From assembly GCA_008632985.1 (NCBI GenBank), contig QPGO01000034.1, forward strand, positions 325,311-389,310: 64,000 nt of DNA, written 5' to 3'. The first letter of the stretch is position 1, and each line of letters starts with the position of its first letter. Source of the stretch: Psammoneis japonica. Lineage: Eukaryota. Positions 13,190-53,156 of this stretch are shown in pieces. Made by a program: the position numbers and the translations under genes. The notes beneath the pieces were generated by a model. The model saw only the letters and a program-made list of their open reading frames with translations. It had not been told where the DNA came from and made no database searches.

Positions 13190-13270
13190 TCCACAACAAT
13201 GACAACAACAATGACAACAAAACAACTGCAGCAACAACAGCAGCAACAACAACAACAACAAAACAACAAT
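13190..13270. repeat. Imperfect (CAA/CAG)n microsatellite
   Basis: cacaacaatgacaacaacaatgacaacaaaacaactgcagcaacaacagcagcaacaacaacaacaaca. Confidence 0.8.
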
Positions 13271-30553: not shown

Positions 30554-31080
30554 TGCACCACCCGTCTCGCCAGTTCTCCTGCGGCCCTCTCTAGTTGCAG
30601 CATCTAGAGAGTCGCCGAAAAATTTTTAATGTGGTGGACTGGAATGGCTTCACTGGCAGATGCACAAGCCTCATTCCCACAAACCCAAGCTGGAGCGGCA
30701 GGGCCAGAGAGTGGAAGAGGTGGTGGGAGCGCGTCAAAGCCATCTGAGACGGCCTGCTGCTGCTCTTGGTTTGCTCTTCGGAAGAATGAGAAGAGCAAGT
30801 TGCTTTTCAAGAGAAAAATGGCCATTGCTCTCATTGCTCGCGCGCACGCATTCAAATTCAAAAAGGCCACAAATGACCCAATGGTCAGAAGGGGTCATTG
30901 CCTCGTCGAACTCCACGAGGTTGGTGGCTTGCACCACCCGTCTCGTTGGTTCTCCTGCGGCCCTCTAGCTGCAGCAACTGAAGCTGCAAAAAACATTCAA
31001 TGTGGTGGACTGGAATGGCTTTGCTGGTGGATGCACAAGCCTCATTCCCAAAAACCCAAGCTGGAGCGGCAGGGCCTTCC
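30554..31080. repeat. Dispersed repeat family in A-B-A arrangement, with further copies at about 50855-51052 (direct, B) and 52268-52470 (inverted, A + start of B)
   Basis: Shared strings ggactggaatggct...gatgcacaagcctcattccca...aacccaagctgga (A) and gaagaatgagaagagcaagttg...gaactccacgaggttggtgg (B). Confidence 0.85.
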
Positions 31081-31523
31081 AGCTCCAACCATCGTGCCGC
31101 GCACTTGAGGGCACGCACCTTTGGGAGGCCAGGGCGGGTGGGCCCGGCTGGAAGGCTGGGAGATCAGGCATCTGGCAGTTGTTGAGGATTCTGAGGAACA
31201 TTGGCATTTGGGTGGAGTGCGAAGTCTCCGCTGGCAAGCACGTCACGAGCGAAGTTGTGCATGACAGGTTCGGCCTGTGAATGAAGACAGCGCAACATTT
31301 CGTCTGATCTCCACAGGCCTGAGAGCCAGATTGGGTTGGTGTCAACGCAGGCACAAAGGAGGGCCATTGCGCCGGCAGCATGGAGACACCAAGCAGTGAT
31401 GTCTCTTGTGTTGAAACCAAAAGTGGCAGGGCCAAGAGCAGTGACAGCAGCGCGGAGCATGCTGGTGACATCGGCAGGGGACACTCATCACCAGGAGTTG
31501 TTTTTGAAGTGAGCACCCAGGGG

Positions 31524-33011
31524 CAGGGACATGAACATCCAGTCAGACGGGATGTGACACGCCCACGTGGCGGCTGCAGGGATCTTGTGCCCTTTGCGTT
31601 GATTTTGAGGTTCGTCCAATGCACACACACACACACAAAAATCAAATGTTAAAAATTGACACAGGCAATCCCTTTGACAGGCCAAAAGTGAGGGAAAACA
31701 AAAAATCAAACACCACGCAAATGTCACAGTGCATGCTGGGTTGGGGCTGCCAAATGTTCAGCCAAAAGTGCTCCAGCACCAGCAGTTGATTCCAAGAAGC
31801 CGCGGGATGACAAAGACAAAGGTGATGAGAAAGGTGCGCCCAACCCAGTGTGGAGCTGCACAGCTCGTGAGTGCAAAGCAGCTCAAAACAACCTCTGGTG
31901 CAGCAAGAAGGACAAGAAATGGCAGAGCCCACAACACCGGAATTACACTTTGTTCTTTTTCCTGCACAAGAGCGCACTTGAATCTTCACAATGGACCCAA
32001 GTTCATGCTGGCACTGCACTCCAATCAGTCTGACATCGAGGTCTCTTCTCCAGCATTCGTGGGTTTTGGCTCCACATTTGGAAAGATGCAACTGCACGGA
32101 AGATCGCTTCTTCAACAAAGGGTGACTCACTTTGGTGAAGAAATGGAATTAAAATTTGGAATTGCATTGGATGGGTTGCTGCAACAAAGAGATGCCAGGT
32201 GCGAAACATGCAAAGAACCTTGCCAATCTAAGTGCCGGTCGACGGAAACTGCCACTCGCCACAGACGCGGGAAACCAAGCCTGAGGAGAAGAAACAGAAC
32301 CAAAAAATTAGAAATGCACTGCATGGGGTGTGGCAACAAATGAAAGAGACACCAGAGATGCACCCTCTCACTTTGGTGCCGGTGCATGTCATGTGTGCCA
32401 CTCCTGCGATGGATGCTGAAAGTCGCTCGGATGGCTTTTTCACAACGCGGCATTTCTGAAGGAACCGAATTGCATTGTCAATTTAGTTGCTTTCACATGA
32501 GTTTCTTGCGCATGAGTTTCAATGAGCCACTGAAAAGAGAAAAAGGAAGACGATTGCAATGAGGGGCACGGCAAAATTTGACGCATCCAATGCAATGAAA
32601 TGCAGCAACACGACGAGAGGCGTTCGGCAAATGCTCACACACCACAAGAAGCAACAGATTGGAGCAGCAAGAGGAGCACAATTGCATTTTCAAAATGCAT
32701 TCACTCACAACAAGCCAATGGAGAAGTGAGTGCATCCGCACATGACCACGAGGGAGAGCAACAGTGGAATCACAAAGGAGAAAACAGCGGAACGAAGGCA
32801 TGTGGCATCATGTCGGTGTGAGGTGTGAGGTGTGCGTGTGCGTTTCAGTTTCCCTCACTTTTGGCCCATCAAAGGGATTGCCCGTGTCAATTTTTGACAT
32901 TGCATGTTTGTTCGTCTGCTGACATGTTGATGAACCTTAAAATCAACGCGAAGGGCCCATTTTTTTTGTGCCGCGTGTCACATCCCGTCTGACTGGACAT
33001 TTGTGTCCCTG
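31524..33011. mobile_element. TIR DNA transposon, about 1.5 kb and probably non-autonomous, with an 8-bp TSD (hAT-like termini)
   Basis: Imperfect TIRs of about 170 bp beginning CAGGGAC and ending GTCCCTG; identical flanks CCCAGGGG at 31516-31523 and 33012-33019. Removing it restores the YR frame (..SLDTPLGAHFKNN..). Confidence 0.9.
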
Positions 33012-33552
33012 CCCAGGGGAGTGTCAAGCGATGCACCATGAGTGCGCAAGTGTTTCACATGTCAGATGAGGGCTTGTGCAGGGCACAGGTTGGGGTGTCC
33101 TGACAAGCCAAGGCCTGATGCTTTGCCAGGGACTCCATTTTTTTTTTAGTGGTGAAGGTGAGGGTGGCAAAGTTTGCGGCATCAAGTTGCGCATGAGTGG
33201 CTTGAAACGTGTCAAGGTGCGCACCCCCTGAGGACAAGCATGTGCCGGCCAGCCAAAAGGGGGTTGCATTGGATGGCGCAGCCACATGTTCTCCCGGGCA
33301 AAGTGAGAAAAAGAAGGTGATGGCTGTCCTCATGTTGATGATGGCTTGCATGCCAGGATTGTTGCTGATGGCAGCGGCGCGCATGATCCACAGGAGGACC
33401 GCTGCTGGCACTGGTTTGACACAGTCAGGAGGTGGATCCTGCTTCTTGCAGTGACAGATTTGGTGGGCAAGGTGGAAATCCATGCCACCTTGGGATGTGT
33501 GGCGGGGATCCGGGGCCCCCATTGCAGCAAACGTTTGCCCAACCAAGTGCAC

Positions 33553-33828
33553 TGATGGAAATTGAAGGCAAATGGCAAGAATTCAAACAACAACTCCTTG
33601 CTGCTGTCTAAACAGCAGATGAGTCTCCGCTCAGAGACCGTCACAGGAGCCGAAAGACGTGTAAGTCGGTGTGATCGGGCCACTGTTGTTGTTCTTGTGA
33701 GCCTTGTGGCTCGAAAGCAAACTACATCGCGCGTGAACGCGCGGAACTAAAGCACACAAAACTGTGCGCGGAAAACTAAACAGCGCGCGATGCTTCGCGC
33801 GCATCCAAATCCTGTTCAAATCCTGTCA
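33553..33828 (-). repeat. 3' LTR of the Copia element
   Basis: Direct repeat of 40388-40663, same length, 14 nt mismatches by manual alignment. Confidence 0.95.
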
Positions 33829-36800
33829 CTCCCCAGTTTGCTTGAGGAGCCACAGAAACAGATTCGACTTCGGATGGAATGAAGTTCCAGAACATGAGGG
33901 GTCGGAGAAGGTCCCAGATTGGGGAGCAACCCCAATGCTTGCTGAGAATGTCAGCAGGGTTGCGGGAGCCTTCGATGAAGTGGAGCTCAAGGCAACCAGA
34001 GGCAATTGCCTCACGCACACGGTGGAACGATAGTGCGGTGTGTTGCTTGTGTAACTTGGAGTGCGGGATGGTGGCACTGTCTACAACCGACTTGTTGTCA
34101 CCGAACATGTAACTGACATTGCGGATCGGGACGCCAAGGCAGCGCAGGGTGATGCGCAGGTCGACAATCTGCTCAACACAATTCCTTGCAGCAACAAATT
34201 CAGATCCGCAGGTTGCAGTCTCCACGGTGGCTTGTTTCTTGGAGAACCAATCAGCCGGGAATTTGTTGAGGAAGTGGAGCATTCCCATGACAGAGCGCCC
34301 GGTGAGCATGCAATGGTGCAAGTTTGCATCGACGCAGTGGGTGGCAGTGACGAACTTGCCAAGGGGCGGTGGAGCGTCCTTCGGGATCATCTCTTCTGCT
34401 TCACCGTACACGGAATGCATCCATTCGTAGGCCGGAGCAGGGAGATCCGAATGGTCGGGCTCTTCCGTGCGAACGCGGAGAGCACCATGTCGCATCTTGG
34501 AGAGGCACCCACAGACGCGTTTGGCACGATCCAAGTGGCCTTGACGGGGCGCAGCTCGGAAGCTAGAGAGTGACATGACGGCCGTGGTGATGTCAATTCG
34601 ACCAAGGGACACTGCCCATTGGAGTGAACCAACAAGAGACTGGAACTTGTGAATGCCATCGGGTCCCAGCAGTTCGGAAGTGTCCAGTTCGGGGTGGTCA
34701 CCCTTCTCTAGAGGTGACAGGGCGTTGGTGGCAGGTTTCTCCCCAAACAGTCGGGCGTAGCTGTCGACCATGCGCTCGATGTACTTGCGCGGAGACAGGC
34801 ACAAGGTTCCGTCGGGGTCCCGGGAAAAGTCGCAACCCAGATGGAACTCAATGGGTCCCGCACCCTTGAGCTTGAACTTGTGCTTTTCCGTGAGAGTGTC
34901 GACGAAAGATTGAGGGTCCTTCATGGCAATGGCGAGGTCATCCACATAAACGGCAATGTGTTCACAGTGGTCGCCGTTCCTGCGCATCCAAATGTCGGGT
35001 TCGGCGCGGCAGGGGAAGAAGCCTTCAGCTCGCAGGCAGTCGGCAAAGCACTCGTGCCAGCGGAGACCGGAGCTGCGGAGTCCATACAGTGCCTTGTGGA
35101 TGACAAGGATGTGTCCTTTGAGTTTGCCAAATTCGGGTCCAGCTACAATGTAAAGCTTCTCCTTGGTGGTGGCTTCAAGGCAGGCATTGCCAATGTCGGT
35201 GGCCCATGTCTCCAGCTTGTTGAGTTCGGCCAGGAAAATCATCAGCCGAAGGCCACGAAGGGAGACTGCTCCGGAGTAGACACTGTCGACAGGTACGTCC
35301 GTGAGGTGCCCGTCGGCTACGAGTCGTGCCTTGTGGCGACCGTCGTGTTTCACGTCGCACACCAGGTGCACTCGGATCTTCTTGTGTCCCGCAGGAGGAG
35401 TGGAAGACTTGAAGGGCCCGCAGTCATGGAAGACTTCGTATTCGTCGAGTTGGTCCATCTCGAGATTAGTTGCGTCTCCCCACTTGCGGTTGCCGTTGCG
35501 TTCGTCTGGTGACATGGCGTGTTTGTAGTTCCGGGGAACTTCGTATCCGCACTTGTGGCGAGGTGCAGTGCGGAAGGAGCAAAGCTTGGCTTGGTTGGCC
35601 ATGCGAAATAGCTTCTTTTGGCGCCTCGCGATGGTGCGGAACCGCTTCCATCCATCCGTGTCGAGGAGTCCGTTCTCTCGTGCATAGATGGCACAGGTGA
35701 CGGGGTCGTCCTTGGCGATGATGGCAAGAGGCTCGGACGTGATCTCCCCACTTTCCCATTCAAGCATGATGTTGTAGCTTGAGCCTTTCCAGGTTGGGTC
35801 GTGAGGCTTCAGAGGGCCTTCGTGTGACACGATGCGTCGAAATTTCCAAATGGTGGTGTCTTCGTCTTCTTGCTCAATGTGATTCATGATGTCATTGTGG
35901 GCAAGGACTTCCTCGCATTCGTCATTGTTGACAGAGCAGACGAACTTGGTGAGCTCGGGATTGCCGTTCACTTTCCATTCGTGGTCTTCGACGGCCTTGA
36001 CGATGCGAGCTCTGTGGCGTTGTCCGTCCTCTTGTGGCTGCATGAGGAAGGTACGTCCAATGATGTCTTGCAGATCGAAAACTGGCATCTTGGGTGTCCT
36101 GATCTCCCCATCAGGAGAATCGACGGGGTTGTCGTCATGGCGAGATTTGATGATGGGTTCAGGTGGCTCCCCATCAGGAGGATCAAGACGCAGGTTTCGA
36201 ACGGCAGGATCGGGGGTGGCGGAGCGAACGTTGGACCGGCAGAGGATCTTCTGAGTCTCGTCAGATAGAATCTTGAAGGTCATCTGGTGGCCGACGTGCT
36301 CAGCAATGCCAACGAAGCGTCCACGCAACTCACGAGATTCGGACGGCCAATCGGAGTCATCGAGGTGGAAGTGCACTGGTTCCCACCAGTGAAAGCGAAG
36401 CAATGGGCTGATGTCCGGGGTGGATCCAGTGAGAGTCTCGAGGGGCGTGCGCCAGTGGAGACGTGGGGATGCTGCATGGTTGAGCATGAAGCACACGTGC
36501 ATGAGCGCCAGCAGCCATGTGTGGGCGGGCGAACCAAAACGGTCCATGACAGTGTTCGCCATGCGCTTCACAGTCTGGTGTCGACGCTCGGCAAAGTTTT
36601 GGTGTTGCTGGTGAGGCTCACTTTGCCAGCTGGAGATGAAGAGGGCGCGTAGGATCCCGAGCACTTTGTTGCTGATCTCAACTTGAGCACGGTCGCCAAT
36701 GAGTTTGGATGGGGCACCACGTTCACGGATCTGATCCTCGAGTGTGTTGACAAACTCTTTGTCCGTCTCAGTGCCGCAGACGTCAGTGACGGTAGACTCG

Positions 36801-39475
36801 GTGCCAACAAACAGTTGGGCGCTGGTGCAACCAGAGTCGACGGCCGGGGTGTCGGCACAAACGGTGTCAGTGGCGATGGGCTCGTTGCGACGGTGCACAT
36901 TAAGGGCGGGGTTGGGTGATTTGAAGGCCTTGCGAAGGTGTGCACCGGCGGGCATGCGGGCGCACTGCGTGGTGCAGTCAAAAGTACGACGGACCGCATC
37001 GGCAGGCAGGAAGCCAAAGTGAGGCCGAAGAGACTCGAAGGGGGGGTCCTTGGGCTGCACAGTGCGCTCCGGAGGTGGAACGTCATCGCCCTTGGGGTCA
37101 ATCGCATGCAGATGACACTCGTAGAACACGTCGTCGTTCGGAATGAGGTGATCATCGAGGGCGGACGCGTGATCGGCAGACAAGGAAGCGGACAAGATGG
37201 TCTCGTTGACAACGACACGGTGACGGCAGTTGCCGCATTCATCAAACAGGTTGGCAGTGGGATCGTCCTGTTTGTCAGAGATCGCGTCGCACCACTGGTC
37301 ATCGTCAGTGACAGAGTGATCGAGGACGGAAGGGTCCCATGTGTCATCACCGGTGAGGATGACGTGGGGCAGGGTGTCCCATTCGGCGTCAGTGTAAGGT
37401 CGCATGGCAACACAAGGCAGGCCAGCCTTGATGTCAATGGGGATGACACAGCCATCAGGAGTGGCAATGCGTTGCAAACCGTTGGGCACCTTGACAGAGC
37501 GATCGTTGACATCCTGTTTGCACCATTCGAGCTGGCCGCAGGAATGGATGGTCTTGCCCTTTCCCGTGCATGCGCACTGATGGAGGATGGCGATGACGGG
37601 ACCACGCTGGGTCTCAATGACGGCACCAGCGGTGACAATGGGGATGTCCACCAATTGATGATCGTCAATGCCCTGAACGTCGACTTGGCGAGAGGTGCGT
37701 GCGATGACGCGGACGTCGTCGCCAGCAATGCCGCCGTTGGCCCCACGATCGACTAGAGCGCCAGTGCGTGTGGAGCGATGAGCAGAGGCAGAGCAAATGA
37801 CATTGTGGTTGTCAACGCGGCGGCAAGTGCGGCCGTTAAGTTCCATGTCATCTGCAGAAGCTGGCGGGGTAGAGGAAGCGGCGGATGGCCCCGGTCGACT
37901 GGCATTGGGGGCTTGGTTAGGAGACAACAGACGTTGCAGATCACCGGGTGGCAGTGGCTTGCGCTTGGTGAGGTGCGCCAGGACAGGATTGTCCGAAATG
38001 GCGTCCACATGTGCAGCGGAGTCACCACAGTCAGCAGGAGTCGTGTTGGACAAGTTGACATCACCGTCACTCCCAAGGTGTTGGTCGTGAAGGTTGGCCG
38101 TAACAGACTCATGGCAGTTGCTGGCTCGCGGGTTGCGGGGAGGCGGACGAGAGTGCTCAAGGATGATTGCCTTGGAGGAATCGGGCAACAAATCCCAGAG
38201 CCGTTGGTGGTCGGGAGGGAGACGTCTCCATTGGACACCGGTGAGGCTGGGACCACGGGTGCAGGCAGCATTGGCTTGAAGGACGTCAACGTCGCTGTCA
38301 ATGTCGTAGAACACATCGTTGGACGGTTCCTCGGAGCAGACGTCGTGTGCGCACATGGCGCGTCGGGGAGCTCGAGGTGTCGTCTTGGGTTGAAATGTGC
38401 TGTCGCACTGAGCTGCCGCGGAGAGGAGCAAGCCACAGCATTGATCGCATGTGAGGCTCTTGCCACTCTGCGTACGATGCTGATCAGCTTGGTTCTTGAC
38501 AGCACGGAGTTCCTCGACAGGGTGCACGGCATTCTCGAGCATGACGCGCTTCTGTCCTTCAGAGAAGTGGTCGCTGGCGGGGATGAGTGCCTCGCACTTG
38601 CGCAACTGATCTTGCCAATGAAGGATGAACCCGTGGGTCGGACCTTTCCAAGTGCCATCACCAAGACGTGCGGTGGTGAGGTGCGTGAGCAGGGTGGAGG
38701 ACTCGATGGATGCACGGGTGGAGGCAAGCGCGCATTCAGACAAGGAGCGGTGGACGGTCTGTGCGCCAGAGGACCCCACATTTTCGCGAATGAGAGCCTT
38801 GCCCTTGTCGGTGAGAAGGATGCGTTCGAAGACGGCGAACATGCACTTTTGCTGTTCAGCAAAGAGCAGTTTGTCTTCGGGGCTGGTCGGTTTGTACGAC
38901 GAGTCTAGAATGCACTCGACGTCTTGGGCACGGGCTTGTGCCACAAGTGAGGTGTGCCAAGTGTGCCACTGCTTGTCGGATTTGAGAGCCGTGAAAGCGG
39001 TGGGATCACGCTTGATGCCTCGCTTGAAGTCTCGCACCGGGTCGCGTGCCTTGGTCAGGTTGGTGACATGTGGAGGTGCAAGGGGTGAGCTGCCGATGGA
39101 CAGAGAGGACATGCAGTCCGGGCTGAGGCGGTGGGCAAGGAACTCGTCATGCGCGAACAAAGAGGAGTCATTGGCAACGTCAAGACCTTTGTGTGCTTTG
39201 ACAATGTACAGGCTAACTGGTGCTGCTAACATGTTCTCATAACCACGGGGCAAAGGGATTACATTGGTGCCGTTGTCGCACTCAAGCGAGTCGATTTGGG
39301 ACGGCATGAACGTGAACAGTTCCTGACACGAGTCCGTGCCGTCTTGGGCCAAAGCCAAACGAAGAGGACTCCCAGCACCTTGGGCAAGCACGGTTCCAAC
39401 AACGTGCTCGAAACCATCGGTTTGTTGCTGACGAGTGAGAACCATGGCAGACAAAAGTGGTGTCAGGACAATCAA
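33776..39475 (-). CDS. Copia gag-pol polyprotein, open but heavily missense-mutated
   Basis: PR ALVDRGANGG; IN ATDT..GDRAQVE..QNFAERR; RT KHDGRHKARLVADG, KALYGL, AVYVDD; RH VDANL, ETATCGSE, GDNKSV, NPADILSK. Confidence 0.93.
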   Translation of the reverse strand: MIVLTPLLSAMVLTRQQQTDGFEHVVGTVLAQGAGSPLRLALAQDGTDSCQELFTFMPSQIDSLECDNGTNVIPLPRGYENMLAAPVSLYIVKAHKGLDVANDSSLFAHDEFLAHRLSPDCMSSLSIGSSPLAPPHVTNLTKARDPVRDFKRGIKRDPTAFTALKSDKQWHTWHTSLVAQARAQDVECILDSSYKPTSPEDKLLFAEQQKCMFAVFERILLTDKGKALIRENVGSSGAQTVHRSLSECALASTRASIESSTLLTHLTTARLGDGTWKGPTHGFILHWQDQLRKCEALIPASDHFSEGQKRVMLENAVHPVEELRAVKNQADQHRTQSGKSLTCDQCCGLLLSAAAQCDSTFQPKTTPRAPRRAMCAHDVCSEEPSNDVFYDIDSDVDVLQANAACTRGPSLTGVQWRRLPPDHQRLWDLLPDSSKAIILEHSRPPPRNPRASNCHESVTANLHDQHLGSDGDVNLSNTTPADCGDSAAHVDAISDNPVLAHLTKRKPLPPGDLQRLLSPNQAPNASRPGPSAASSTPPASADDMELNGRTCRRVDNHNVICSASAHRSTRTGALVDRGANGGIAGDDVRVIARTSRQVDVQGIDDHQLVDIPIVTAGAVIETQRGPVIAILHQCACTGKGKTIHSCGQLEWCKQDVNDRSVKVPNGLQRIATPDGCVIPIDIKAGLPCVAMRPYTDAEWDTLPHVILTGDDTWDPSVLDHSVTDDDQWCDAISDKQDDPTANLFDECGNCRHRVVVNETILSASLSADHASALDDHLIPNDDVFYECHLHAIDPKGDDVPPPERTVQPKDPPFESLRPHFGFLPADAVRRTFDCTTQCARMPAGAHLRKAFKSPNPALNVHRRNEPIATDTVCADTPAVDSGCTSAQLFVGTESTVTDVCGTETDKEFVNTLEDQIRERGAPSKLIGDRAQVEISNKVLGILRALFISSWQSEPHQQHQNFAERRHQTVKRMANTVMDRFGSPAHTWLLALMHVCFMLNHAASPRLHWRTPLETLTGSTPDISPLLRFHWWEPVHFHLDDSDWPSESRELRGRFVGIAEHVGHQMTFKILSDETQKILCRSNVRSATPDPAVRNLRLDPPDGEPPEPIIKSRHDDNPVDSPDGEIRTPKMPVFDLQDIIGRTFLMQPQEDGQRHRARIVKAVEDHEWKVNGNPELTKFVCSVNNDECEEVLAHNDIMNHIEQEDEDTTIWKFRRIVSHEGPLKPHDPTWKGSSYNIMLEWESGEITSEPLAIIAKDDPVTCAIYARENGLLDTDGWKRFRTIARRQKKLFRMANQAKLCSFRTAPRHKCGYEVPRNYKHAMSPDERNGNRKWGDATNLEMDQLDEYEVFHDCGPFKSSTPPAGHKKIRVHLVCDVKHDGRHKARLVADGHLTDVPVDSVYSGAVSLRGLRLMIFLAELNKLETWATDIGNACLEATTKEKLYIVAGPEFGKLKGHILVIHKALYGLRSSGLRWHECFADCLRAEGFFPCRAEPDIWMRRNGDHCEHIAVYVDDLAIAMKDPQSFVDTLTEKHKFKLKGAGPIEFHLGCDFSRDPDGTLCLSPRKYIERMVDSYARLFGEKPATNALSPLEKGDHPELDTSELLGPDGIHKFQSLVGSLQWAVSLGRIDITTAVMSLSSFRAAPRQGHLDRAKRVCGCLSKMRHGALRVRTEEPDHSDLPAPAYEWMHSVYGEAEEMIPKDAPPPLGKFVTATHCVDANLHHCMLTGRSVMGMLHFLNKFPADWFSKKQATVETATCGSEFVAARNCVEQIVDLRITLRCLGVPIRNVSYMFGDNKSVVDSATIPHSKLHKQHTALSFHRVREAIASGCLELHFIEGSRNPADILSKHWGCSPIWDLLRPLMFWNFIPSEVESVSVAPQANWGVTGFEQDLDAREASRAV

Positions 39476-40387
39476 TTCTGGTTGGGAAGCGAAGGCAGAC
39501 TCGAAACTTGGGTGAGAATGGACTTGACTTGAAATGGACTTGACTTGAAATCTTGAACTGTCTTAAAATCAGAAGTCGCCGGGCTTTGTTGTCCCGTTCG
39601 TTGTTGGGTGCTAAACTTCCTGTCCGGACCGCAGAGTTGTGCCAGCACGTCCGAACCCGCAGCCAGCGGCGCTTTGGGTTGCTTGCGAGCGGAGCAGCGG
39701 GTTGTAAACCCCTGCAGGCAAGCTGACTAGAGGTGGACAAGACCCCCGAACCGTTCTTGTTTTACATCGGTTGGATTTCCCGATCAGGCTGGCCAGTTGA
39801 CGCAGGCGTCAGGCGCTGTGGACGAACGAACAAACGCGGGAAAGCACCCTCGCCCCAACGCAGGCTGCAATCACGGCTGCTTGCTCTCACAGTCGTCCTC
39901 GTGGACCTGGCAGAACTGCAGAGCACCAGCAGTCCGGGGCAGATCAGGTGCAATGGACTCGGTGTGCTTGCAGAGTGGCAGCAAAACCGCAGTCCGAAGA
40001 GTGGATAAAGGTTCTTGGCCGTGAAGACATGCATGTGTGTGTGCATGTCTTCAGCGACTAAGATCCTTGAACATGTGGGGTTCTTGACCGTTGACCGAGG
40101 AATGGGCATGTCAAGGGATGTTGATCAAGGATAGACTTGGATATGACCGTTGAACATAAGTCTTCAGCGATCAAAGGTGGCACAATCAATCCAGATATCC
40201 AGCGGTAAGGAGACTTGACGGTGACGTTAACTTCCTGCCGATGCCCTGGCCATTGAATGCGCGTAGACTTGCCGATGTATGTAGAACATATACGGAGGTC
40301 CACGTAGAATTGAAATAGCGTCGTTGGCAAATCAACGACGACGATGGCGGTTGCTCAATGGGTTGACAATGAGCAAGACTGTTAATC

Positions 40388-40663
40388 TGACAGAAATTGA
40401 AGGCAAATGGCAAGAATTCAAACAATGACTCCTTACTGCTGTCTAAATGGCAGATGAGTCTCCGCTCAGAGACCGTCACAGGAGCCGAAAGACGTGCAAG
40501 TCGGCATAATCGGGCCACTGTTGTCATTCTTGTGAGCCTTGTGGCTCGAAAGCAAACTACATCGCGCGTGAACGCGCGGAACTAAAGCACACAAAACTGT
40601 GCGCGGTAAACTAAACAGCGCGCGATGCTTCGCGCGCATCCAAATCCTGTTCAAATCCTGTCA
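40388..40663 (-). repeat. 5' LTR of the Copia element
   Basis: TGACAG...CTGTCA termini; direct repeat of 33553-33828. Confidence 0.95.
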
Positions 40664-43600
40664 TGCACGGCATCCTCAGCGGTTTGTCCCCAGATGGGAT
40701 TGCCAGGGGGTGCAAGTTCTCCAATGTGGCATCAGTGGAGGAAGACTTGGAAGAAGACAACTGGATCTTTGATGTCTTTGAGGAGTGGGTTGATGGCCAA
40801 AGTGGTGCAGAAGTTGCGCCACTTGCCCCAATGGGTGTTGGTGGCAGAGGCTCTTGAAGAGGTGATGCCGAGTTGCACAGCATGTTGAGCAGTGTGGAGG
40901 TCATGAAGGAATGCAGTTCTGGTGGTGGCATGCAAAGACGCCAGGAGAGTGCATGTGGACAACACAACATGTCAAAGTGGGACAAAAACTCACGGTTGGA
41001 GAGATGCTGCAGATGAGAGGCATCATCGGCAGCGGTGTTCAGGTGACCAGGCCAGCAGCTGTGGAGGCCAACATGGTGGTGACAGCATTGGTGCAGTGCT
41101 TGGAACTGGAGGAGTTTGGTGGTGGGCTTGATCATTGTGGTGGAACCCTTGTGTTGCCAGTGCATGGTGCAGGAGTTGTTGGTGCATGACAGGTTGGTGC
41201 GCTCCTGAAGGTCAAAACAGTCTGAGGCACAGTGGGGCTGGGTGACACTGCCGGCAAGTTCCAGGTCTGTGTTGGCAATGGGGCCATGTGGGTTGGAGCA
41301 TGTGGATGGGCGGTTTGTCGCTGCCTTTGGAAAGGGGAGTTGCCACACTGTGGGACCCGCGTTGTGTTGGCGGTGGCCCCTGCCATTGCCAAATTGGAGA
41401 GTGGCAGTGCGCGGTGCAGTGGCGGCTGTGGGGAGGAGGACACCTCTGGCACCGTGGCTGGCTGCATCATGGCAGCCAGCAAGAGTGGGCTGCAATGGAG
41501 CCAACTCTTGGTGGAGTTTCAAGTGTGGATTTGAGCTCTTGAAAATCGTCAAGTGCGGCATGTGCACCAGTGACAATTTGGACCCATGAGTCCGGAGTGG
41601 TGTGTCGGAGATTTTCTTGCAGCTCTGAGCAGAGACCCCGAGAGCCAGGAACAGCAATTCCTGGCAAAACCAGAGCTCCCCAAGAAGCTTGTGATGCTCT
41701 GTGACGGTGGCCCGTTTGTGGGTGTGGGGAAAATCCTGGTGCAGCACAGTGTGGAGTCTTGCTCAGCATTGTGCCATGAGGCAAATGGTCATGGAATGGG
41801 CATCAATGAGCCAGCCAAGAACTTCTTTCTCTGCAGACCAAGTTGCATCACCCTGTTTGAGCTTTTTGATGGAGACAGGCTCTTTGCGGGTGGGAGCATC
41901 TTGTGTGTTGAGTGGTCGGAAAACATCATCAAGGGCCCAAAGGATTGTACGATGTGCTTTGCGACGGGCACATTTTGATCCTTGTGCAGCCCCAATGAAA
42001 TCATCAGCACAGTTCAATGCATTGGAGGAGGCGGCGGCGTGCATGGTTGAGATGCGGGTCAGGCACAGATGGCAGTGGAATGGCATCTTGAGTGCATGGC
42101 CGTGGTGGTTGGTGCTTTGGTGGGCAGCTGTCCAAAAGGTGTTCGAGTGGGAGAGGTGGTGCTTGAACATTGCAGAGGAGGTCCTGACTGGCAAGATCTG
42201 CAACAGTTTCTGCTGCTGTGCAGAAAAGTGGGGGTGAATTCGCCCAACCCATTGGCAGTTGGATTGGAAGGGCGACAAGTGGTGGTTCCCCAGGCAAGTT
42301 GGGAAACACGACACCCAACAGTGGCACTCCATTGGGTGCCAGTTGCGTGTGATGGTGGCCATTGGCTAGATCTGTCTTCATGATGTAGACCTTGCCCTTC
42401 CTTGGGTCTGCAAGGAGGATCCGGTGTTGAAGGCGGTCAAAGGCCCATCCAAACTGCATGGACTTGACGGCTGTGTTGGGCTGTGTGGCAGGGTTAAGAC
42501 CACAGAAGGTGTGGCTGACAACAGGCCTGGGTTGGCGGCCATGTTGTGGGACAACACCAACAGGACTGAGAAGCAATGTCGGGTTGTTGTGCACTTTGGC
42601 ACATGGGACCACAATCCAGAAGCCTTTGTCAACCATGTCGGCCATGTCATCTGGTGGGATCTCAACATGCTGGCAGGCAGATTTGTGAGGTCCCCCATTG
42701 ACACTGGCATCTGGCTCAGCTGATGTCCAGGGCACGTCTGCCACAGTGACGGGCGTGCCCCTGTGCTTGCAGGCGCACAGCAGGCGGTGTGCTGGATGGC
42801 ATTGTGTGTTGTTGTGTGGCTGGCCCCAATCACCTCGACCGCTGCACAAACGCAGCAAGCAGCTGAGTCCTTGGTGATGCAAACAGCAGCATCATTGGAA
42901 ATGTGCTCACCCAGTTTGTCACTGTGAATGGTGGCAGTGACATCCTGTCCACGAGCAGTGGGGCAGGTGCTCTGCCTCTTGAAACTCTCTGCAGTCGGGG
43001 GTTGTGGATGCAACAGTGCTGGAGCTTTTGCTGGGAGAGGCTCTTGGCACCAAGTCCCTGCACTTGGACCATTGCCAAAGACCCATTTGGTCTTCCAGTT
43101 TTCCTCCCCCCAGGCCAAAAAGCATGCCTGTTCCACCTCGGTGTGGTTGTTGTGGTGATCATGGCTTGCACCGCAGTTGGTGTTGCACTGGCCTTTGATG
43201 TGGTGTGGGTTGCAGTGCACGCGGCCTTGATCATCTTTGGGGAGGTCAATCCCTTTGCGGGCACAGTGTTGCTTGACTTCACGGGATCACACATTGGGGC
43301 GGTCATGCAGTGGGGCAAAGCACTCAGGTGCAGGCGGTGGAGTTGGGAGATTGGGAGCGAACGCTGCTTGCGAGATGGGTTGGGCTGGTTGCATTGATGC
43401 AAGCAGACTCCAGTGCCAATGCAGGGTGCCTTTTGCTGCTTCTAAGACAATGCCAAGAGGTGTGAAGGGGACCGGCTGGTCGCTGGTTGCCTGCGTCTTG
43501 AGCCAGTGTCAGATCTCCACCTGCACACAGCATTGAAAATTGGCTGGCAGCGTGGGATGGTGCAAGCACTGGATGGCAAGCTCATTCATGTGTCTGTCCA

Positions 43601-44329
43601 CATCCATGCACTGTCAAGTCAACCACTGCAGGATGGGATGGTTGATGCCAAGTGCAGCAGAGAACACGAGCCGGCAGCCATCATGAGATTGCTGGGTGGC
43701 CTGCATGGTGGTCGCAACGAGAGCTTTGTCTGGTGCATCCAGCAGTTTGGCATCCTGCAGCCACAAGACTCTGGCACCCCCGTGAATTTGAGCACACATG
43801 GAGTTGCGACAGGTGATTTGCTCAGCACATTCCGGCATGGCAAGTCCAAACATGAAGGGGTCAATGCCTTGTGTGGGCTCGTCTGTGGCATCCACGAACT
43901 CGGCCAGAGCAAACTGTCCTCTTGTGAGGTCACCAACTGTGGTGCAGGTGTGGCCATCCCACGGCTCGGCAGGACCCACCAATGTTGCAGGACATGTCAA
44001 CACTTGATGGAGGGCTTGAATTTGGCCCTCACCAGCTGCATCATTGGCTTGACAGTGTGCATGACAATGGCCATGGGCTGGTTGTGGCTTGACGCAGCTG
44101 CAACACAAGCATGCAGGGTGCCCGGGTTGTGCTGCAACTGGCCCTGAACTGGCACGGCAAAATCCAACATGGCTTCACCACAATTGCCTTGGTGGGGGTC
44201 CTTCGCTGCTGCATGACAGCAGTCCTGATGTGTCTGAATGACCGGTGGTGCCACTGGGGCAGCGGCTCCTGCTGGTGGAGGTGGAACATCTGGGACGCCA
44301 ACAATCTGGGTCTGACCGTCTGCCACAAT

Positions 44330-46712: not shown

Positions 46713-46918
46713 GCTCCACCACCCCTGTCATGACTTGGGCTCTCAGTGGTGCAATGCCATCTGGCATGACCACACCAGTTGCTGTCCCACCCTGATCAAT
46801 CAGGACTTCCTCTCTGCTCCACCACCCCTGTCATGACTTGGGCTCTCAGCGGTGCAATGCCATCTAGCATGACCACACCAGTCACTGTCCCACCCTGATT
46901 AATCAGGACTTCCTCTCT
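46713..46918. repeat. 103-bp tandem duplication
   Basis: gctccaccacccctgtcatgacttggg...aatcaggacttcctctct occurs twice, with four differing sites. Confidence 0.92.
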
Positions 46919-47935
46919 GAAGATGATGCTGTGCGTTGGTTGTGATGTCTGAACAACTTGAGGATGGATCTGAGTGCTGCGGTCTAATTTAAAACAGCTC
47001 ACATTTCCCGCACTTCACCGTGTCATTTTGACCTGCCTCGGAACACCCCCGAACACTTGTGCGTTTGTCAATTCCTCACAGGGGCTGTTAGACGGCCATG
47101 GGAGCTGCACATTCAGTGCTTCAAATGCCACTTGTCGACCCATGCCCTGTTGTCAGGTCGAAAAAAACACCAATTTTTGCTAAAATCGGGCTTCTCATGG
47201 GAGATCAGCGGCGACTTTCCGGGAAATGCCGACAAGTGGCATTTGACTGGCTGCAGACATGTCTGCAGTCATTGAGATAAAAGTCGCGCATGGTCACACC
47301 TGTTGTTCAAGCATTCTAGGGTGTCTGGCGAACGGACAAAGTTCGACCCATCGCTGAAATTTTTTTTTGCGAACGCGCGCGCATTCACTGCGATGCATCC
47401 GGGTTGTTTGTGCAAAAATTGCGAGCTCCCAAAAAACAGACTGCAGCACGTAGATCCATCCTTAAAGATTTTCTTCAATGACTGCAATGGGCAAATGCTT
47501 TTTGACAACAATGTGACACAGAACCAACTCAAGGAGACACTGTCCAACGAGTGTCCTGAAGGTGCTGTCGTCATTTCACTGGATGTGATGTTTTGTGTGC
47601 ACACCCACAAATGGAGGCATGGAGCATTCTTTGTTCCTGCCTGTCCAGACGATCTGTCATGGGGAGGTGGTGTTGATGGGCACCCACTTCACAAGCACAC
47701 CAAGAAAAGAGATGATGCTGTGGAGCCAAGGCATTCCACCAGGAACGACCCAGGGTCTGACATCAAACAAAAATTCAAGCCTGCCAAAAGTGGGTGACTT
47801 TGCAATTCCCCTTTGTTTGCAATGTGACTTTCTTCTGTGCAAGCAATGCATTGTCAATTGGCCCTTTGCACAAACCCACTTTTCACCTCTGCCAACTTGC
47901 TGCTTCACCAGTTTCGCATTCCAACAGCTGCTTGT

Positions 47936-48736
47936 TCAAATGCTTGCTGTGTTGAAATCATGGACCAGACACACCATGTTCCTTCGATCCGAGTTTGTTT
48001 TGTCAGGCAAAGCTCGGTGCAACACTCTTGCATCAAAAACAAATGCAGTGCCTGCTTCTCCAACCAGCAATTGTTTTTCCAAACCCAACCTGACCAAGTG
48101 TCTTTCGCGTTCCTTCTCATTCAATGTTGCCTCACAACCATCCGGCCACATCTCAACTGCACCATTGTGCTCCATTGTGTCATCAAGGAACAGAAACATG
48201 GCGAAAATTTTGTCACCAGGTGACGATTTTGTTTCCACGTGATCGCGATGAATTTCCCCCTTTGACCAGAAGTTTGATCTTGAACTTGAAGCAGGAGCAT
48301 TTGCTGCTGTGTGCCGGGATGTCTTTCTGCACAAATCACCTGCTGGGGGAAAGCCAGGAATCAACTCCAACATTTTTTCTGCCAACTCAATGCCTTCCGC
48401 CTTGTCCTTTTTGTCAATGGCAAACTCACCAACAAAACAGTGTCCTTCCTTCTCTTGCTTGCTGCTTGGTGCCTTGTTTGCCAGTGTTGTCATCTGGCTG
48501 AGCAGGGGTTGTGGTGTTTTGAATTTTTGCAAGCAGCCTTTTTTCCCTTCCTGGTGCACTCTTTCTTTGGACCCGGCCGTCTTGCTCTTGACGACATGAG
48601 ATTTCATTTCACCCGGTTGTGTCAGCAACTTGCCATGTTTCTGACATGATGTTGTCGGCCAACGGGCAAATTTCTGGCATCCGTTGACAGAACACTTCCG
48701 CGCCATTCTCTGAAAATGCCTGTTCCACCAAATCAA
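47936..48736 (-). pseudogene. PhyH-like 2OG-Fe(II) dioxygenase with an N-terminal CX4C..CX2HG zinc finger, inside the transposon block
   Basis: CSVNGCQKFARWPTTSCQKHG; EIHRD; FLFLDD..EHNGAVEMWP; GEAGTAFVFDARVLHRA..N.DRR. No Tyr in 266 aa. Confidence 0.65.
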
Positions 48737-49506
48737 ATGGTGCCCAGTCTTTTTTTTTTTAAGTGGAACAGACCCAATTCAGCGAAAGTCCGCATCCATT
48801 GCTGTGCAACAAAAACGGCTTTCTCGCGAAACATGTGTTGCCAATGGCAGTCCATCTGTTGGGTGCACCACAGACATTTTTTTCATAAATGGTCCCCTGT
48901 GACATGATCTTCGTTGATCCTGTTTGCTGCATGATCTCATCAAATGGGTCATCCCAGCCATCTCAAAAGCACAGAAAACAATTTTGTTGCACACTGTCTT
49001 GCCAGTGTTGTTGTGAGACATTTTCATGTCGCCGCCGCGGCAGACACAAAGGAACAGCCACCATCCACCATTCATTCCGCACCACAAACAAACTCTTTTG
49101 AAAGAATGCATGCAATGAACAATTGCCAATGACAGGCATCACTTTTTTGTCAATGCACCCATCTGTCAACAGAGCAATTTGGTGTCACTTTTTTGTTGTT
49201 GCAACTGTGTGTCAACAAAGTGATTTGGCATCACTTTTCCATTGTTGCGCACACTTGTCAACAGAAGAAGTGTCAGTTTTTTGTCAATGCACACATCTGT
49301 TGATGCATGCCTTTGGCATGTTTGTGCACTCAATGCCAGCCTGCACATCATTGTGACATGAAGCACATCTCCCGCAGCAAACCACATTCTCCCGAATCTT
49401 GTCCAAGTTGCTGATCAACTCATGTTGAGCAGCAAACAGACAACGTTTGGGCAACTCTGTCTCTTGTCCTCCGCAGCCTTGTCATTCCCTTTGCAAAACA
49501 ACAGCC

Positions 49507-50145
49507 TCAAGCTGGAGAAGAATTGTCCGATGGTGTGGGAGGAGATGGAGATGGATTCCAAAGGACTTCGGGGAGGGGAGGAGGGGGTTTGTCGTCGGAG
49601 AAACCAAACCCAGCAGGATCATCATGGTTGTCCAGTGATTCATCATGGTCATCCAGTGATTCATCGTCTGGAGGGGGAAGTGCATTGGCGGCAGCAGAAG
49701 ATGCGGCATGCAGGCGAAGGGACATTTCCTCCTTTTCATGGCAGGGCAAGTGCTTCTGTAGATGAAGGGCGATGTTGGAAAAGGGGACACGGCAATGGGG
49801 GCATTTGGGTTTGTTGGTGTTGGATCCAAGGGAGCCAACGGAGGCGGAATCCAGAGGATGAGAGGAAAGAGATGTTCCGCCAGATGAAGAAGACAATTGG
49901 GTTGTGTGGCGCAACTGTGTCAATGGGGGATGGACACCAGATGCTGCAGCGCAGTGCTGAGACAGGAGGTGACACTGCACATTGTTTTCGGAGTCAAATC
50001 CATGTTGTCCACAATGAGGACAACCAAAAGACTTGGTGGAAACGGCAGAACGGAGGCAGTCAGTTGCGATGTGCCTGCTGAGACCACGTTCAGAAAAGAA
50101 ACCAGTTCGTTTGCACCATGGACAAACAAGACCATCAGACAACAT
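49507..50145 (-). pseudogene. Degenerate C2H2-like zinc-finger ORF, possibly the N-terminus of a DNA-transposon protein
   Basis: CPWCKRTGFFSERGLSRH, CPHCGQHGFDSE...CHL, CPHCRVPFSNIALHLQKHLPC. Confidence 0.5.
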
Positions 50146-50989
50146 GGCCGATGTGCAGAGACAAAGGAGTTGAGAAGAGAATCAAAAGGAAACAGCATGT
50201 GCAGCAACAATCACTTGGGGACACAGCGAGGGCAGAAACACAGAGAAACAACGTGCGATCGACATGGAAGGCATCGTGGATGGAGGGGAAGGAAGGATGG
50301 AATGGGCAGGGAGAGAAAATTGAGAAGACAGCTGGAATCTACATTGACAGACACAGGCGGAGATTTTGATCCAGAAAGTTGATCAACACACAATCCAGAA
50401 ATTAAAACAGAATTAAACACACACATGAGGCTTGTGGGATGGGGGGGTGAACAGCCAAATTGAGGAAAACAGATGTTTGTTGTTGAACATTTCAGAAAAG
50501 CTGACTTGACAAATCAGCACGATCTTGGATTAAAGGGAGAGAATGTTGGTTTTCATTTCAAGAAATCTTGACAGCCAGTGCAACACCTGGATCATTGGTG
50601 TCCCAGATGAAGGGGTTGTTGCGCACCTGCTGCAGGGGCCATGGGCACTTGCGGTGGTGGTGGCACATTCACCCTGGCCCCTCCCCCATTCGCTTGCAGC
50701 ACCAGAGGCACTTGCTGGGGCACCATGTTGGGATCCAGCACATTGGCCGCATCCTGAGCTGCTGGCACTGCTGCTTGCCAATTCATTGGGATGTGCTTGC
50801 AGACTTCCTGCAAACAAACAAGAGACAGCAGAAGGCATCCTGCACGGCAACGACAGTGTTAAAACTGTCTGAGACAGCCTGTTGCTCTTGGTCTGCTCTT
50901 CAGAAGAATGAGAAGAGCAAGTTGTTGCTCTTCAAGAGAAAAATGGCTGTTGCTCTCATTGCTTGTGCACATGCGTTCAAATTCAAAAA

Positions 50990-52262
50990 TGGCCACAAAT
51001 GACCCAACGGTCAGAAGGGGTCATTGCCTCGTTGAACTCCACGAGGTTGGTGGACGATGCAGTGGACGTGTGCACCCCCCCCCCCCCCCCCCCCCAGGGT
51101 GAAGCTGATGATGATGCACCAATCCTTGGGGGCAACTTGTCAGTGCCAAGGGACCTCGCCAAAAAGTGCAATGAAACTGCCAAGTTGGAAATGGGAGATG
51201 AATGCAGACAAAACTGTCATCAGAGGAGACTTGCATGTTTGGCCAAGTTTTGGAAGGAGAAGGATCCTGAATGTCACTCTGTTGGCATCAGAGAGGTCTC
51301 TGCTGAAGACCTTGGTGATCCAACCAAGTGTGCCACTTCAGTCAGCACCAAGAAGACCTTGTGCATGCATGTGTGAACAACCAGTTTGCATTTGCATTTC
51401 TTGGTGTTAAACAAGAGAAAGGCTGATGGAGAAAGCTCAAGTTGTTTGAAAACATCCAAGAAAATGCAAAGATGCCACAATGTGGGGTGCCCAGATGGCT
51501 GAAGAGGGCTTGCCTGAGAGCTTCCACACAAAGGTTGTTGAGTTCCTTGCTGGGTGCAAGAAGGAGCATGCTCAAGCAACGAAGACAGGAGATGCAGATG
51601 AAAACTCTGCTGATCCCATTCCCAGCACAGAAGCCAACAATGTGTTTGTGTGTGGCTCTGGACCACTGCACAGTGGAATTTCATGGCAAGGGGTCAGCAT
51701 CCATGGACCCCTTGTGGTGGATGAAGAATTTCAGGCTGGGTGCAGACAGCTTGATTGGAAAGCATGCAGAAGCAAAGGCCAACAAGTCTGGAGAGAGGCT
51801 TTCAGAGAAAAACATGTGTGCCAACCCACTGGATTGGATGATGTGCTTTTGGACAGGTGCGGGCATTCACTGTGCTCTTCATGGCAACAAATTTGTCAGC
51901 AATGATGCTCTCTTTTTGGACAAAAGTGTGCAGGAAGGAACGCGTGCCACAAAGCATTGTGTGAGCAGATTGCTGGAATTTTGTGAGCCCACTTGGAGGA
52001 AGTCGCAAATCACATGGATCTGAGTCATGTGAGTCCATGTGGCACTCAAAAGAGCTTGTCAACCTGCACCTTGAATGGGGCCACTTCCCCCCCATCAACT
52101 CCAGCTGTTGCACATTGTGGAGAATGGACTGTTGGGAGTGTCCTTGATTGCCGCCGGCACTTTGGCAGCATTGGTGGCCAACAACTTGGGTGCATTCTTG
52201 CTGGCTTGGATCCTGACAATGCATTGTTTGACATGCTTCCACCTCATTGGAAGCTTGCAGAT
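50990..52262 (+). mobile_element. Degenerate Crypton-like tyrosine recombinase, 3'-truncated
   Basis: DSLIGKHAEAKANKSGE...NMCANPLDW..CF..G.G, PCGTQK, PPSTPAVAHCGEWTVGSVLD..HFGSIG.Q.LG.ILAGL...FDMLPPHW resemble stramenopile Crypton YR motifs (from memory). Confidence 0.7.
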
Positions 52263-53156
52263 TCTCGCTCTTTGCTCATTCTTCCAAAGAGCAACAAAGA
52301 GCAAAGACCGACAGATGGTTTTCAGCGCTCCCACCTCTCACGCCCTCTGGCCCTGCCATTCCAGCTTGGGTTTTTGGGAATGAGGGGCTTGTGCATCCGC
52401 CAGCAAAGCCATTCCAGTCCATTGCTGGAAGATCTCCAGTTCACCCCAGAGAGCCGCAGGAGAAGGAAGGAGATGGGCGGCACTGGCCGCTAGTGAGCAG
52501 ACTTTTTCCCAAAGTTTTGGGTCTTGCCCAGCGTCAACCAATTGCCAGGATCAGCTGCAATCAGCCTCACTTTGACTGCAATCACTGTTGCAAACTCGAT
52601 TGCAATGACCTGATTGTCGGGAAGGAGCCAAGGTCGCAATCACAGTCGACTGTTGCAATCGACTGCAGCCGAAATTCGAGCTCTTTTTTTGGCTGAAACA
52701 AGCAAAGTGGCTCGATTTCTTCGCCTGCGGTGGGCTTTTCTCCTGCGCGGAGTGCGCTCTTGCGCAGAGGAATTGCTGGTCCACAGCGATGCAATCGACT
52801 GATTTGGGGGAAGTCTCCAGCCAGCTGCTGGCTGAAGAATTTTGTGTGGAAATTGCACTGAAAGAGTCTGTCAATCTGTGCGATGGGGTGTTTTGGTGAA
52901 CGCTGGACAGACTCGTCTGCTTTTGCGCGTGTGTAAAAAAAATAAAAATTGCACCTGCAAAACCCCCAAACGCACTGATGAGCAGACTTTTTCCAGCCAG
53001 CAGCTGGGCTGGCTGGAGACTTCCCCCAGATAGATTGCAATCTGATTGCTGCAGAAAACTTTGCAATTAGTTAACTTGAAACTCTGTGGCAAATTTTGCC
53101 TCCAAGCTCCAAGTTTCTCGACACTCCACATTCCACATAAGTACGGTAGAAGTGCC

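Follow-up and report, generated by a model that had tools for sequence, protein, structure and literature searches.

The described process closest to the one considered here comes from the chlorarachniophyte Bigelowiella natans, in which mutation-accumulation lines were sequenced on the Illumina platform (Mettrop et al., bioRxiv 10.64898/2026.01.13.699255). According to the main text of this preprint, 230 of 231 single-nucleotide mutations in integrated giant-virus and virophage regions are A→G or T→C, and these transitions all fall at TpA, yielding TpG or CpA, at a rate of ~6e-7 per site per generation, which is ~1000 times that of the rest of the genome and is seen in some lines only. The genome holds 124 TpA-depleted, CpA- and TpG-enriched clusters, and reverse-transcriptase and DDE Pfam families are enriched among TpA-depleted coding sequences; the authors propose an ADAT2-like adenosine deaminase and cite ADAT2 activity on DNA in amphioxus and trypanosomes (bioRxiv 10.64898/2026.01.13.699255). 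Here, the same signature is described in the diatom Psammoneis japonica, in a 64,000-nucleotide (nt) stretch of contig QPGO01000034.1 (assembly GCA_008632985.1, forward-strand positions 325,311 to 389,310; hereafter the window), where three blocks of transposon-derived DNA have lost most of their TA dinucleotides. We read this as hypermutation at TpA that would strike transposon blocks after their integration, through deamination of adenine, and give this reading as a whole a probability of about 0.5.

Other systems share parts of this behavior. Fungal repeat-induced point mutation (RIP) acts mainly at CpA, creates TpA and lowers GC content; it responds to duplicated sequence before meiosis and depends on a RID-type methyltransferase. 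Its changes are C→T (PMC7296669), and it resembles the process at the diatom locus in being a region-confined chromosomal transition hypermutation that inactivates repeats or selfish DNA, with dinucleotide specificity and sharp borders. The direction is opposite: in the diatom blocks TpA is destroyed and GC raised, and whereas RIP makes stop codons, the TpA process cannot. Deamination of 5-methylcytosine (5mC) at CpG likewise gives TpG and CpA and is seen in the old blocks of the window, but cannot remove TpA. The ADAR and APOBEC3 enzymes are similar in that they defend against selfish nucleic acids by deaminase hypermutation; they differ in working on RNA or cDNA before integration and with strand bias, whereas at the diatom locus the long terminal repeats (LTRs) of one insertion diverged after integration and both strands were struck, and APOBEC gives G→A or C→T rather than A→G. 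Finally, 5-hydroxymethyluracil (5hmU) in dinoflagellates, another lineage of the stramenopile-alveolate-rhizarian (SAR) group, is a modification of the A:T pair that falls preferentially on repeats and has a silencing role, yet it is an epigenetic and not a mutational mark, and no loss of TpA is mentioned in the passages of PMC11572971 considered here.

TpA-depleted blocks in the diatom window

The window is diatom nuclear DNA, and three blocks of transposon-derived sequence lie within it:

8870..14300, no strand assigned: TA-depleted block B1, DNA of an unclassified repeat or degenerate element (per kb, TA observed/expected 0.03-0.08 and CpG 0.05-0.26)
30590..52934, no strand assigned: TA-depleted block B2, nested elements of different ages (TA observed/expected 0.105 vs 0.603 in host DNA)
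57070..64000, no strand assigned: TA-depleted block B3, cut off by the end of the window; degenerate element DNA of no assigned class (TA 0.00-0.09, CpG 0.00-0.28)

Over positions 30600-53050 TA has an observed/expected (o/e) ratio of 0.105, and the host DNA of the window one of 0.603: these 22,451 nt contain 131 TAs, whereas the host ratio would give 754, and 52 remain against 550 expected when a young Ty1/copia element nested in this block is set aside. The ratios of TG and CA rise to 1.53 and 1.64 (1.11 and 1.12 in host DNA), that of CG is 0.60 vs 1.00, and the remaining dinucleotides barely shift. Per kb, TA o/e runs at 0.45-0.8 in host DNA and drops to 0.00-0.1 in three stretches; none of the 53 host 1-kb windows lies below 0.35 (median 0.59); across the 64 block windows the median is 0.06 and the maximum 0.48. 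The depletion is real and far beyond chance. It extends to the stop triplets that contain TA, with TAA and TAG at 2.0 and 1.3 per kb of strand in the block vs 7.7 and 10.1 in host DNA, and TGA at the same density in both. On the plus strand TG and CA counts are near-equal in most sub-blocks (e.g., 631/637, 376/373 and 794/781), and thus both products arise on one strand.

All borders read from TA positions are sharp within ~100 nt. At the left border of B2, TAs at 30528, 30592, 30605 and 30627 are followed by a gap to 30966, and at the right border 52491 is followed by a gap to 52934, 52943 and 53031; the corresponding steps are 8869|9080 and 14264|14327 for B1 and 57070|57244 for B3. The original prediction, made from the letters of the window, had described TA as nearly absent over 30600-53050, with excess TG and CA, both outcomes on one strand and sharp borders. 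Each of these observations holds, and the coordinates are right to ~100 nt. The prediction overlooked two additional TA-poor blocks, at ~8,870-14,300 and ~57,070-64,000 (the window end), and the decay of CpG, which is low (o/e 0.05-0.6) in every old part of the blocks, the young copia element at 33553-40663 excepted. The GC content of the blocks is at the host level or higher; fungal RIP was accordingly rejected as the cause, since TpA is destroyed and GC is not lowered.

Depletion of this kind could also be produced by sequencing or base-calling, if a modified base at TA were read as G or C. Such an artefact gains some room from the origin of the available runs, which share the sample of the assembly and have no recorded platform, and from one contig just outside the left border of B2 that reads TA where the assembly does not:

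30450, 30452 and 30477, no strand assigned: positions at which a run contig has TA and the window CA, CA and TG, respectively

The reads as a whole speak for the assembled letters. One run, X1, contains 80% of the words sampled from a 10-kb stretch, and its contigs were mapped on 27000-46999; among the data sets listed for the window, none was of RNA. Exact-word depth, about 60, is 60.8 in the host flank and 44-68 in the unique parts of the block; seven contigs over 4,637 nt of TA-poor unique sequence differ from the assembly at six letters, and four of the seven at none. Three small runs from the same sample carry single-base deletions absent from X1, which suggests a different, noisier technology. 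Of the 32 copia rows listed, each of these runs matches the family-majority letters of X1 in 23 to 26, the others mostly having no contig or the window's own letter. The X1 contigs reproduce the TA-poor sequence and the small runs agree with X1, so that this sequence is what the reads contain. Moreover, an artefact predicts neither the sparing of TTAA nor the orderly two-strand context rule found in the consensus (below), and the same signature is present in the Illumina mutation-accumulation data of B. natans (bioRxiv 10.64898/2026.01.13.699255). We leave the artefact a very slim chance.

The contig that has TA at the three positions outside the border has a mean depth of 51.9, vs 60.8 alongside; its differences fit two alleles equally well as a recent change, so that they are a hint, and no stronger than that, of ongoing activity. 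The sequence directly outside this border (30394-30528) is TA-dense, with 20 TAs in 135 nt and GTACAG-like repeats. It is unmutated apart from these three positions, and may be the edge of the targeted domain or reflect allelic variation.

Within the copia element the summed read depth is 1000-2000 times that of the flank, a figure that is no copy number and suggests that the family is very abundant. Differences between reads and window were listed for 40 of 366 rows, 32 of them in copia. These 32 comprise 18 TA-related positions, six CpG-related ones, six other transitions and two transversions, and the 18 resolve into five TG↔CA pairs, three positions with TA in the window vs CA in the reads, and five with TG or CA in the window vs TA in the reads.

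Timing and direction of the changes

The elements and repeats that date and orient the changes lie in B2:

33553..40663, minus strand: young Ty1/copia LTR retrotransposon nested in B2, recognized by its LTRs, target-site duplication and RVT_2 domain
33553..33828, minus strand: copia 3' LTR (left on the plus strand), 276 nt, pairs with 40388..40663
40388..40663, minus strand: copia 5' LTR (right on the plus strand), 276 nt
33776..39475, minus strand: copia polyprotein open frame, an uninterrupted open reading frame (ORF) of 1899 amino acids (aa)
42004..42891, minus strand: reverse transcriptase (RT)-like frame of a second, older retroelement, recognized by its homologues, with TA and CpG both depleted
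30635..30799, plus strand: left arm of the inverted repeat that brackets B2 (blastn, 80% over 169 columns)
52264..52421, minus strand: right arm of the same inverted repeat, partner of 30635..30799
46713..46919, plus strand: tandem duplication of 2 x 103 nt within B2; the differences between its copies are mostly TA-derived

The copia element has LTRs that end in TG...CA, is flanked by a 5-bp target-site duplication without mismatch (TGCAC, 33548-33552 and 40664-40668) and carries an RVT_2 match (E 4.6e-26, Pfam search) in one polyprotein, features that together place it in Ty1/copia. Both LTRs of a single insertion are identical at integration. The two LTRs now differ at 14 nucleotides, 13 of them TA-derived: there are five TG↔CA double differences, three positions with TA vs TG or CA, and one transversion. 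A double difference is read as one ancestral TA that resolved independently, to TG in one LTR and to CA in the other. Four TAs are still common to both LTRs, all after C, and three of the four are CTAA. The seven repeat pairs of the window together yield 14 TG↔CA double differences and eight cases of TA vs TG or CA, beside 23 CpG-type differences, 18 other transitions and 24 transversions; the two copies of the tandem duplication at 46713-46919 differ by one TG↔CA, two TA vs TG or CA and one CG vs TG. Because LTRs that were identical at insertion now differ at TA-derived sites, the changes were made after integration.

These pairs bear directly on the possibility that the chromosome was never the substrate and that an ADAR-like A-to-I (inosine) activity edited the RNA or cDNA of the retroelements, of which edited copies were then inserted. 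All classified elements are indeed retroelements, some TG and CA states are common to copies of the copia family, and ADAR favors a U on the 5' side of the adenosine that it edits (a preference quoted in bioRxiv 10.64898/2026.01.13.699255). However, LTRs made from one template differ at eight TA sites, five of them as TG vs CA; the tandem duplication and the non-coding repeat arms differ likewise; both strands are struck about equally, with TG close to CA on one strand in most sub-blocks; and the depletion ends at domain borders and spans all the nested DNA, including unclassified non-coding sequence. The substrate that mutates in cultures of B. natans is the sequence of integrated double-stranded DNA viruses (bioRxiv 10.64898/2026.01.13.699255). 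Editing before integration, whether by ADAR or APOBEC enzymes, was rejected on the LTR and strand evidence, and we regard it as highly unlikely.

The decay of CpG was likewise rejected as the cause of TA loss. The young copia element has TA o/e of 0.12-0.28 with CpG o/e of 0.84-0.96; 79 TAs are left and about two-thirds have been lost. Since TA was lost here with CpG intact, the TA process is separable from CpG decay and far faster. The converse state is found in a metagenome scan for related copia sequences, which gave one locus (1257 nt) with TA o/e of 0.59 and CpG of 0.19: in the hosts of some copia relatives, CpG decay occurs without loss of TpA.

Proteins give the direction of change. TAY→TGY turns tyrosine (Tyr) into Cys, and TAY→CAY turns it into His. 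Tyr makes up 1.05% of the copia frame, whereas 120 homologues have 3.86% (lowest value 2.86%); Cys stands at 3.05% vs 0.97% and His at 4.58% vs 3.52%. Conserved columns, defined as those with Tyr in at least 70% of sequences, were taken from an alignment of 45 homologues (the first 45 of 1800-1990 aa); at the 50 such columns the window copy has Tyr 13 times, Cys 21, His 10, Phe five and Trp once, i.e., Cys or His at 31 of 50, and other residue classes are mostly 82-100% conserved (Thr 71%). The RT-like frame at 42004-42891 is more extreme, with 0.34% Tyr, 5.76% Cys and 6.44% His vs 2.25%, 1.37% and 3.92% in 150 homologues, and its three conserved Tyr columns are all replaced (His, His and Cys). 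No homologue among the 120 of copia or the 150 of the RT family is as poor in Tyr and as rich in Cys and His as the window copies.

Taken at face value, the low-TA open frame of 1899 aa could look like a working gene, as might be expected had these families evolved or been selected to avoid TA (e.g., under a TA-directed nuclease or for RNA stability) and been inserted TA-poor. Such native composition does not account for Cys or His at the conserved tyrosines, for TA differences between the LTRs of a single insertion, for the normal Tyr and TA of relatives, or for the depletion shared by non-coding and unrelated nested sequences within common sharp borders, and its probability is close to negligible. 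Since homologues keep normal Tyr and the metagenomic locus keeps normal TA, the depletion, as judged by comparison of sequences, is not intrinsic to the copia family. By the same comparison, the 1899-aa frame belongs to a copy that is dead and hypermutated. The change of TA to TG or CA makes no in-frame stop and removes TAA and TAG, which is why the frame remains open. Long frames of 392, 376, 369 and 272 aa on both strands overlap the copia polyprotein frame (36500-39300), and overlapping frames of 200-390 aa are numerous. With TAA and TAG erased, dead elements therefore keep long frames on both strands, the 1899-aa frame among them, that gene callers will report as genes.

Leaving the enzyme aside, an A:T→G:C hypermutation at TpA that is chromosomal, follows integration and is confined to regions is very probably real. 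The original prediction had proposed just such a process, and this core proposal is supported by 13 of 14 LTR nucleotides, 31 of 50 tyrosines, the run contigs and the normal TA of the metagenomic relative.

Sequence context and candidate chemistry

The TAs that survive are not a random sample. An A at +1 or a T at -1 flanks 74 of the 88 found in the old blocks, vs 408 of 1160 in host DNA. Among strand-symmetric tetranucleotides, the ratio of block to host density falls from 0.71 for TTAA and 0.26 for CTAA through 0.11 (ATAA), 0.095 (CTAG) and 0.08 (GTAA) to 0.03 (CTAC), 0.014 (GTAC), 0.012 (ATAG), 0.006 (ATAT) and 0.004 (ATAC). An additive two-strand model, in which 5'-T-A-N-3' on each strand is lost independently, describes these values in the old blocks with R2 0.95 and loss exponents of 2.68 for T, 2.29 for C, 1.27 for G and 0.07 for A at N; the younger copia element follows the same order more weakly (R2 0.82). 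Trinucleotides agree, with 0.24 of TAA, 0.08 of TAG, 0.03 of TAC and 0.02 of TAT retained in the blocks, and TGA is the least enriched of the TGN trinucleotides. The target is 5'-T-A-B-3' (B being C, G or T), and TTAA is almost immune.

In conserved Tyr codons His, the product of a change on the other strand, is found at none of six after T vs three of six after A, which are small numbers; codons in which both strands are favored, those with A or G as the previous base, have 10 Cys vs seven His, and thus there is no strong strand bias. Base skews are no guide to strand asymmetry here, as the sole unmutated relative differs in overall GC.

In the mechanism that we propose, A:T→G:C would occur almost only at TpA, and TA would become TG or CA according to the strand struck. 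The adenine in 5'-T-A-N-3' would be lost fastest where N is T or C, more slowly at G and hardly at A, so that TAA and TAG stops would be erased with none created in frame, and proteins would be ruined by Tyr→Cys, Tyr→His and similar replacements. The agent would be a polynucleotide adenosine deaminase of the TadA/ADAT2 kind, which would convert adenine in DNA to hypoxanthine, pairing with C; it might be recruited to silenced, CpG-methylated chromatin or by an RNA guide, its role would be genome defense, and the process would be the same as in B. natans. Engineered adenine base editors derived from TadA deaminate DNA adenine and thereby make A:T→G:C changes; we know of no natural DNA adenine deaminase that has been characterized as chromatin-targeted and TpA-specific. 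Granted that the process is real, we put adenine deamination as its chemistry at even odds.

Because TA is palindromic, the rule reads equally as T→C in 5'-V-T-A-3' (V being A, C or G), and the modified base could be the thymine. A dioxygenase of the TET/JBP type would then oxidize T in this context to 5hmU or 5-formyluracil, which would now and then pair with G, and mutation would be a side effect of the mark. Dinoflagellate 5hmU prefers TpA, and 5-formyluracil mispairs. T→C in V-T-A fits every observation, as A→G in T-A-B does, and the blocks resemble silenced, methylated chromatin in their CpG decay. The passages of PMC11572971 considered here describe 5hmU in dinoflagellates as a product of TET/JBP homologues that marks transposons and silences them. 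Against thymine chemistry, the literature search gave no report of 5hmU in diatoms, window ORFs of at least 110 aa contain no TET/JBP domain, the mark would have to be very mutagenic, with >95% of sites erased and other changes rare, and the B. natans authors favor deamination in the main text of the preprint (bioRxiv 10.64898/2026.01.13.699255). On balance, oxidation of thymine is a serious but rather unlikely explanation. To our knowledge there is no mark of the 5hmU type in diatoms. The probability that remains on the agent goes to other or unknown chemistry.

Several points weigh against the deamination reading, or against its simplest form. The sequence cannot separate A→I on one strand from modification of T on the other, the two chemistries that the original prediction had named. 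No deaminase or TET/JBP domain was found in window ORFs of at least 110 aa, as the original prediction had anticipated in stating that the enzyme was not identifiable in the window. The tRNA substrates of ADAT2/3 include A34-A35, to which the 3'-neighbor order seen here (T and C over G, and G far over A) has no obvious match, and the 3'-neighbor order of ADAR is different as well. The context model takes host DNA as its baseline and fits 10 classes with four parameters. The LTR pair has ~13 events on ~24 TA site-copies vs one on ~500 other site-copies, which suggests a TA rate a few hundred-fold over that of other changes, with a wide error that reflects the single background event. X1 shares the sample of the assembly and is not fully independent of it. 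Moreover, conserved tyrosines are retained unevenly in copia: 12 of the 13 lie at residue 1194 or beyond, in the RT/RNase H half, and the N-terminal 1193 residues keep one of 24. This clustering is not predicted by a uniform process; targeting may have been uneven, or selection may have acted on progenitors that were partly mutated but still mobile. Part of the TA load may likewise have been inherited from partly mutated, still-transposing progenitors, since the family majority has CA at three listed sites where the window copy has TA.

Compared with B. natans, the diatom window shows the same near-exclusive A→G and T→C transitions, the same restriction to TpA with TpG and CpA as products, and the same sparing of host genes; in both, foreign or selfish DNA is the only target and TpA-depleted clusters result. 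There are also differences. The host is rhizarian there and a diatom (Stramenopila) here, and the inserts are nucleocytoplasmic large DNA viruses (NCLDVs) and virophages there, LTR and other retroelements here. TA o/e is 0.45 in the NCLDV region, whereas the diatom blocks are near saturation at 0.02-0.1. The 3'-neighbor rule and the immunity of TTAA are seen here, whereas the main text of the preprint has no trinucleotide analysis. Finally, events there are de novo, and the evidence here, from LTRs and homologues, is historical (bioRxiv 10.64898/2026.01.13.699255). The original prediction knew of no description of such a process; this no longer stands, because the B. natans preprint measured the same signature de novo. 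Diatoms do not appear in the main text of that preprint, and a literature search that included a 2025 preprint on diatom transposable elements turned up no paper describing loss of TpA from the repeats of diatoms. The window thus gives the first evidence found for TpA hypermutation in diatoms and on LTR retrotransposons, of a kind that is itself in print at preprint level. That diatoms and chlorarachniophytes share a dedicated DNA adenine deaminase, guided by chromatin or RNA to 5'-T-A-B-3' as a natural base-editor defense, is a tentative proposal that we rate somewhat below even odds.

Diatoms are major primary producers, and elements of the copia type shape their genomes. If the reading is right, erasure of TpA at hundreds-fold over background would be among the chief influences on how transposons die in diatoms and on the local GC content and dinucleotide bias of their genomes, and transposons and integrated viruses would be killed by recoding without stop codons and with a local gain in GC. 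Were the process also common among SAR algae, mutational repeat inactivation in eukaryotes would have a third major route, beside RIP and 5mC decay. Because a second, distant lineage carries the B. natans signature, the enzyme becomes findable by comparative genomics, among genes common to lineages that bear the signature and absent from others; the T-A-B rule and the immunity of TTAA offer a biochemical read-out for candidates. Should the agent prove to be a natural DNA adenine deaminase, it would be of interest for base editing.

Contents of the blocks and flanking genes

The copia frame has 1350 public homologues at 60-71% identity, with PF07727 in all among the matches listed; in the window copy itself, Pfam integrase or protease domains were not detected, and tblastn with four copia homologues as queries found no further copia fragments elsewhere in the window. 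The RT-like frame at 42004-42891 has 1939 homologues at E<=0.001; RVT_1 is present below cut-off in three of seven long homologues, and the Atlas lead is also RVT_1. The original prediction had both retroelements and DNA elements hit. The first part stands, with two retroelements classified in B2; no DNA transposon could be identified in the blocks, in which every classifiable element is a retroelement.

Apart from 14 of 120 block ORFs that lie inside copia, the remaining 106 of at least 110 aa were searched against Pfam, and at E<=0.01 three gave a match: a weak PhyH/2-oxoglutarate (2OG) oxygenase, a C2H2 zinc finger and a sub-threshold methyltransferase. None of these fell among the 15 ORFs of B1 or the 21 of B3; a relaxed domain scan of eight block ORFs added nothing credible, and an Atlas lookup of the frame at 59911-60648 in B3 gave no lead. 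The PhyH/2OG-Fe(II) oxygenase-like frame (47939-48778, minus strand, B2) contains no tyrosine in 280 aa and has no homologue at E<=0.001. The C2H2 zinc-finger frame (49510-50181, minus strand) also sits within B2; both frames may be element cargo or trapped host genes.

The inverted repeat that brackets B2 is accompanied by additional sub-terminal repeats (30548-30705 vs 30924-31076; 30743-30927 vs 50868-51053). The arrangement of inverted and direct repeats around the 22-kb block suggests, from sequence likeness, a large terminal-inverted-repeat element with nested insertions; the domain scans of block ORFs found no transposase for it.

The genes that flank the blocks are ordinary eukaryotic ones by domain search, including PWWP, linker histone, syntaxin, ankyrin/MATH, RING and deoxyhypusine hydroxylase. 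A host gene at 4925-6016 (minus strand) has a Gig2-like match and a weak PhyH (2OG oxygenase) match; the PhyH-like frame in B2 was considered as its paralogue and rejected, the sequences being unrelated. In a host ORF of 1118 aa at 19291-22647 (minus strand), ankyrin repeats at the N terminus are joined to a PCIF1_WW domain. The PCIF1 family is one of cap-adenosine N6-methyltransferases and thus adenine-directed, and the position of this ORF near TA-poor blocks is probably a coincidence. For the deoxyhypusine hydroxylase, the best named matches are from diatoms: Epithemia (60%), Seminavis (55%), Striatella and Chaetoceros.

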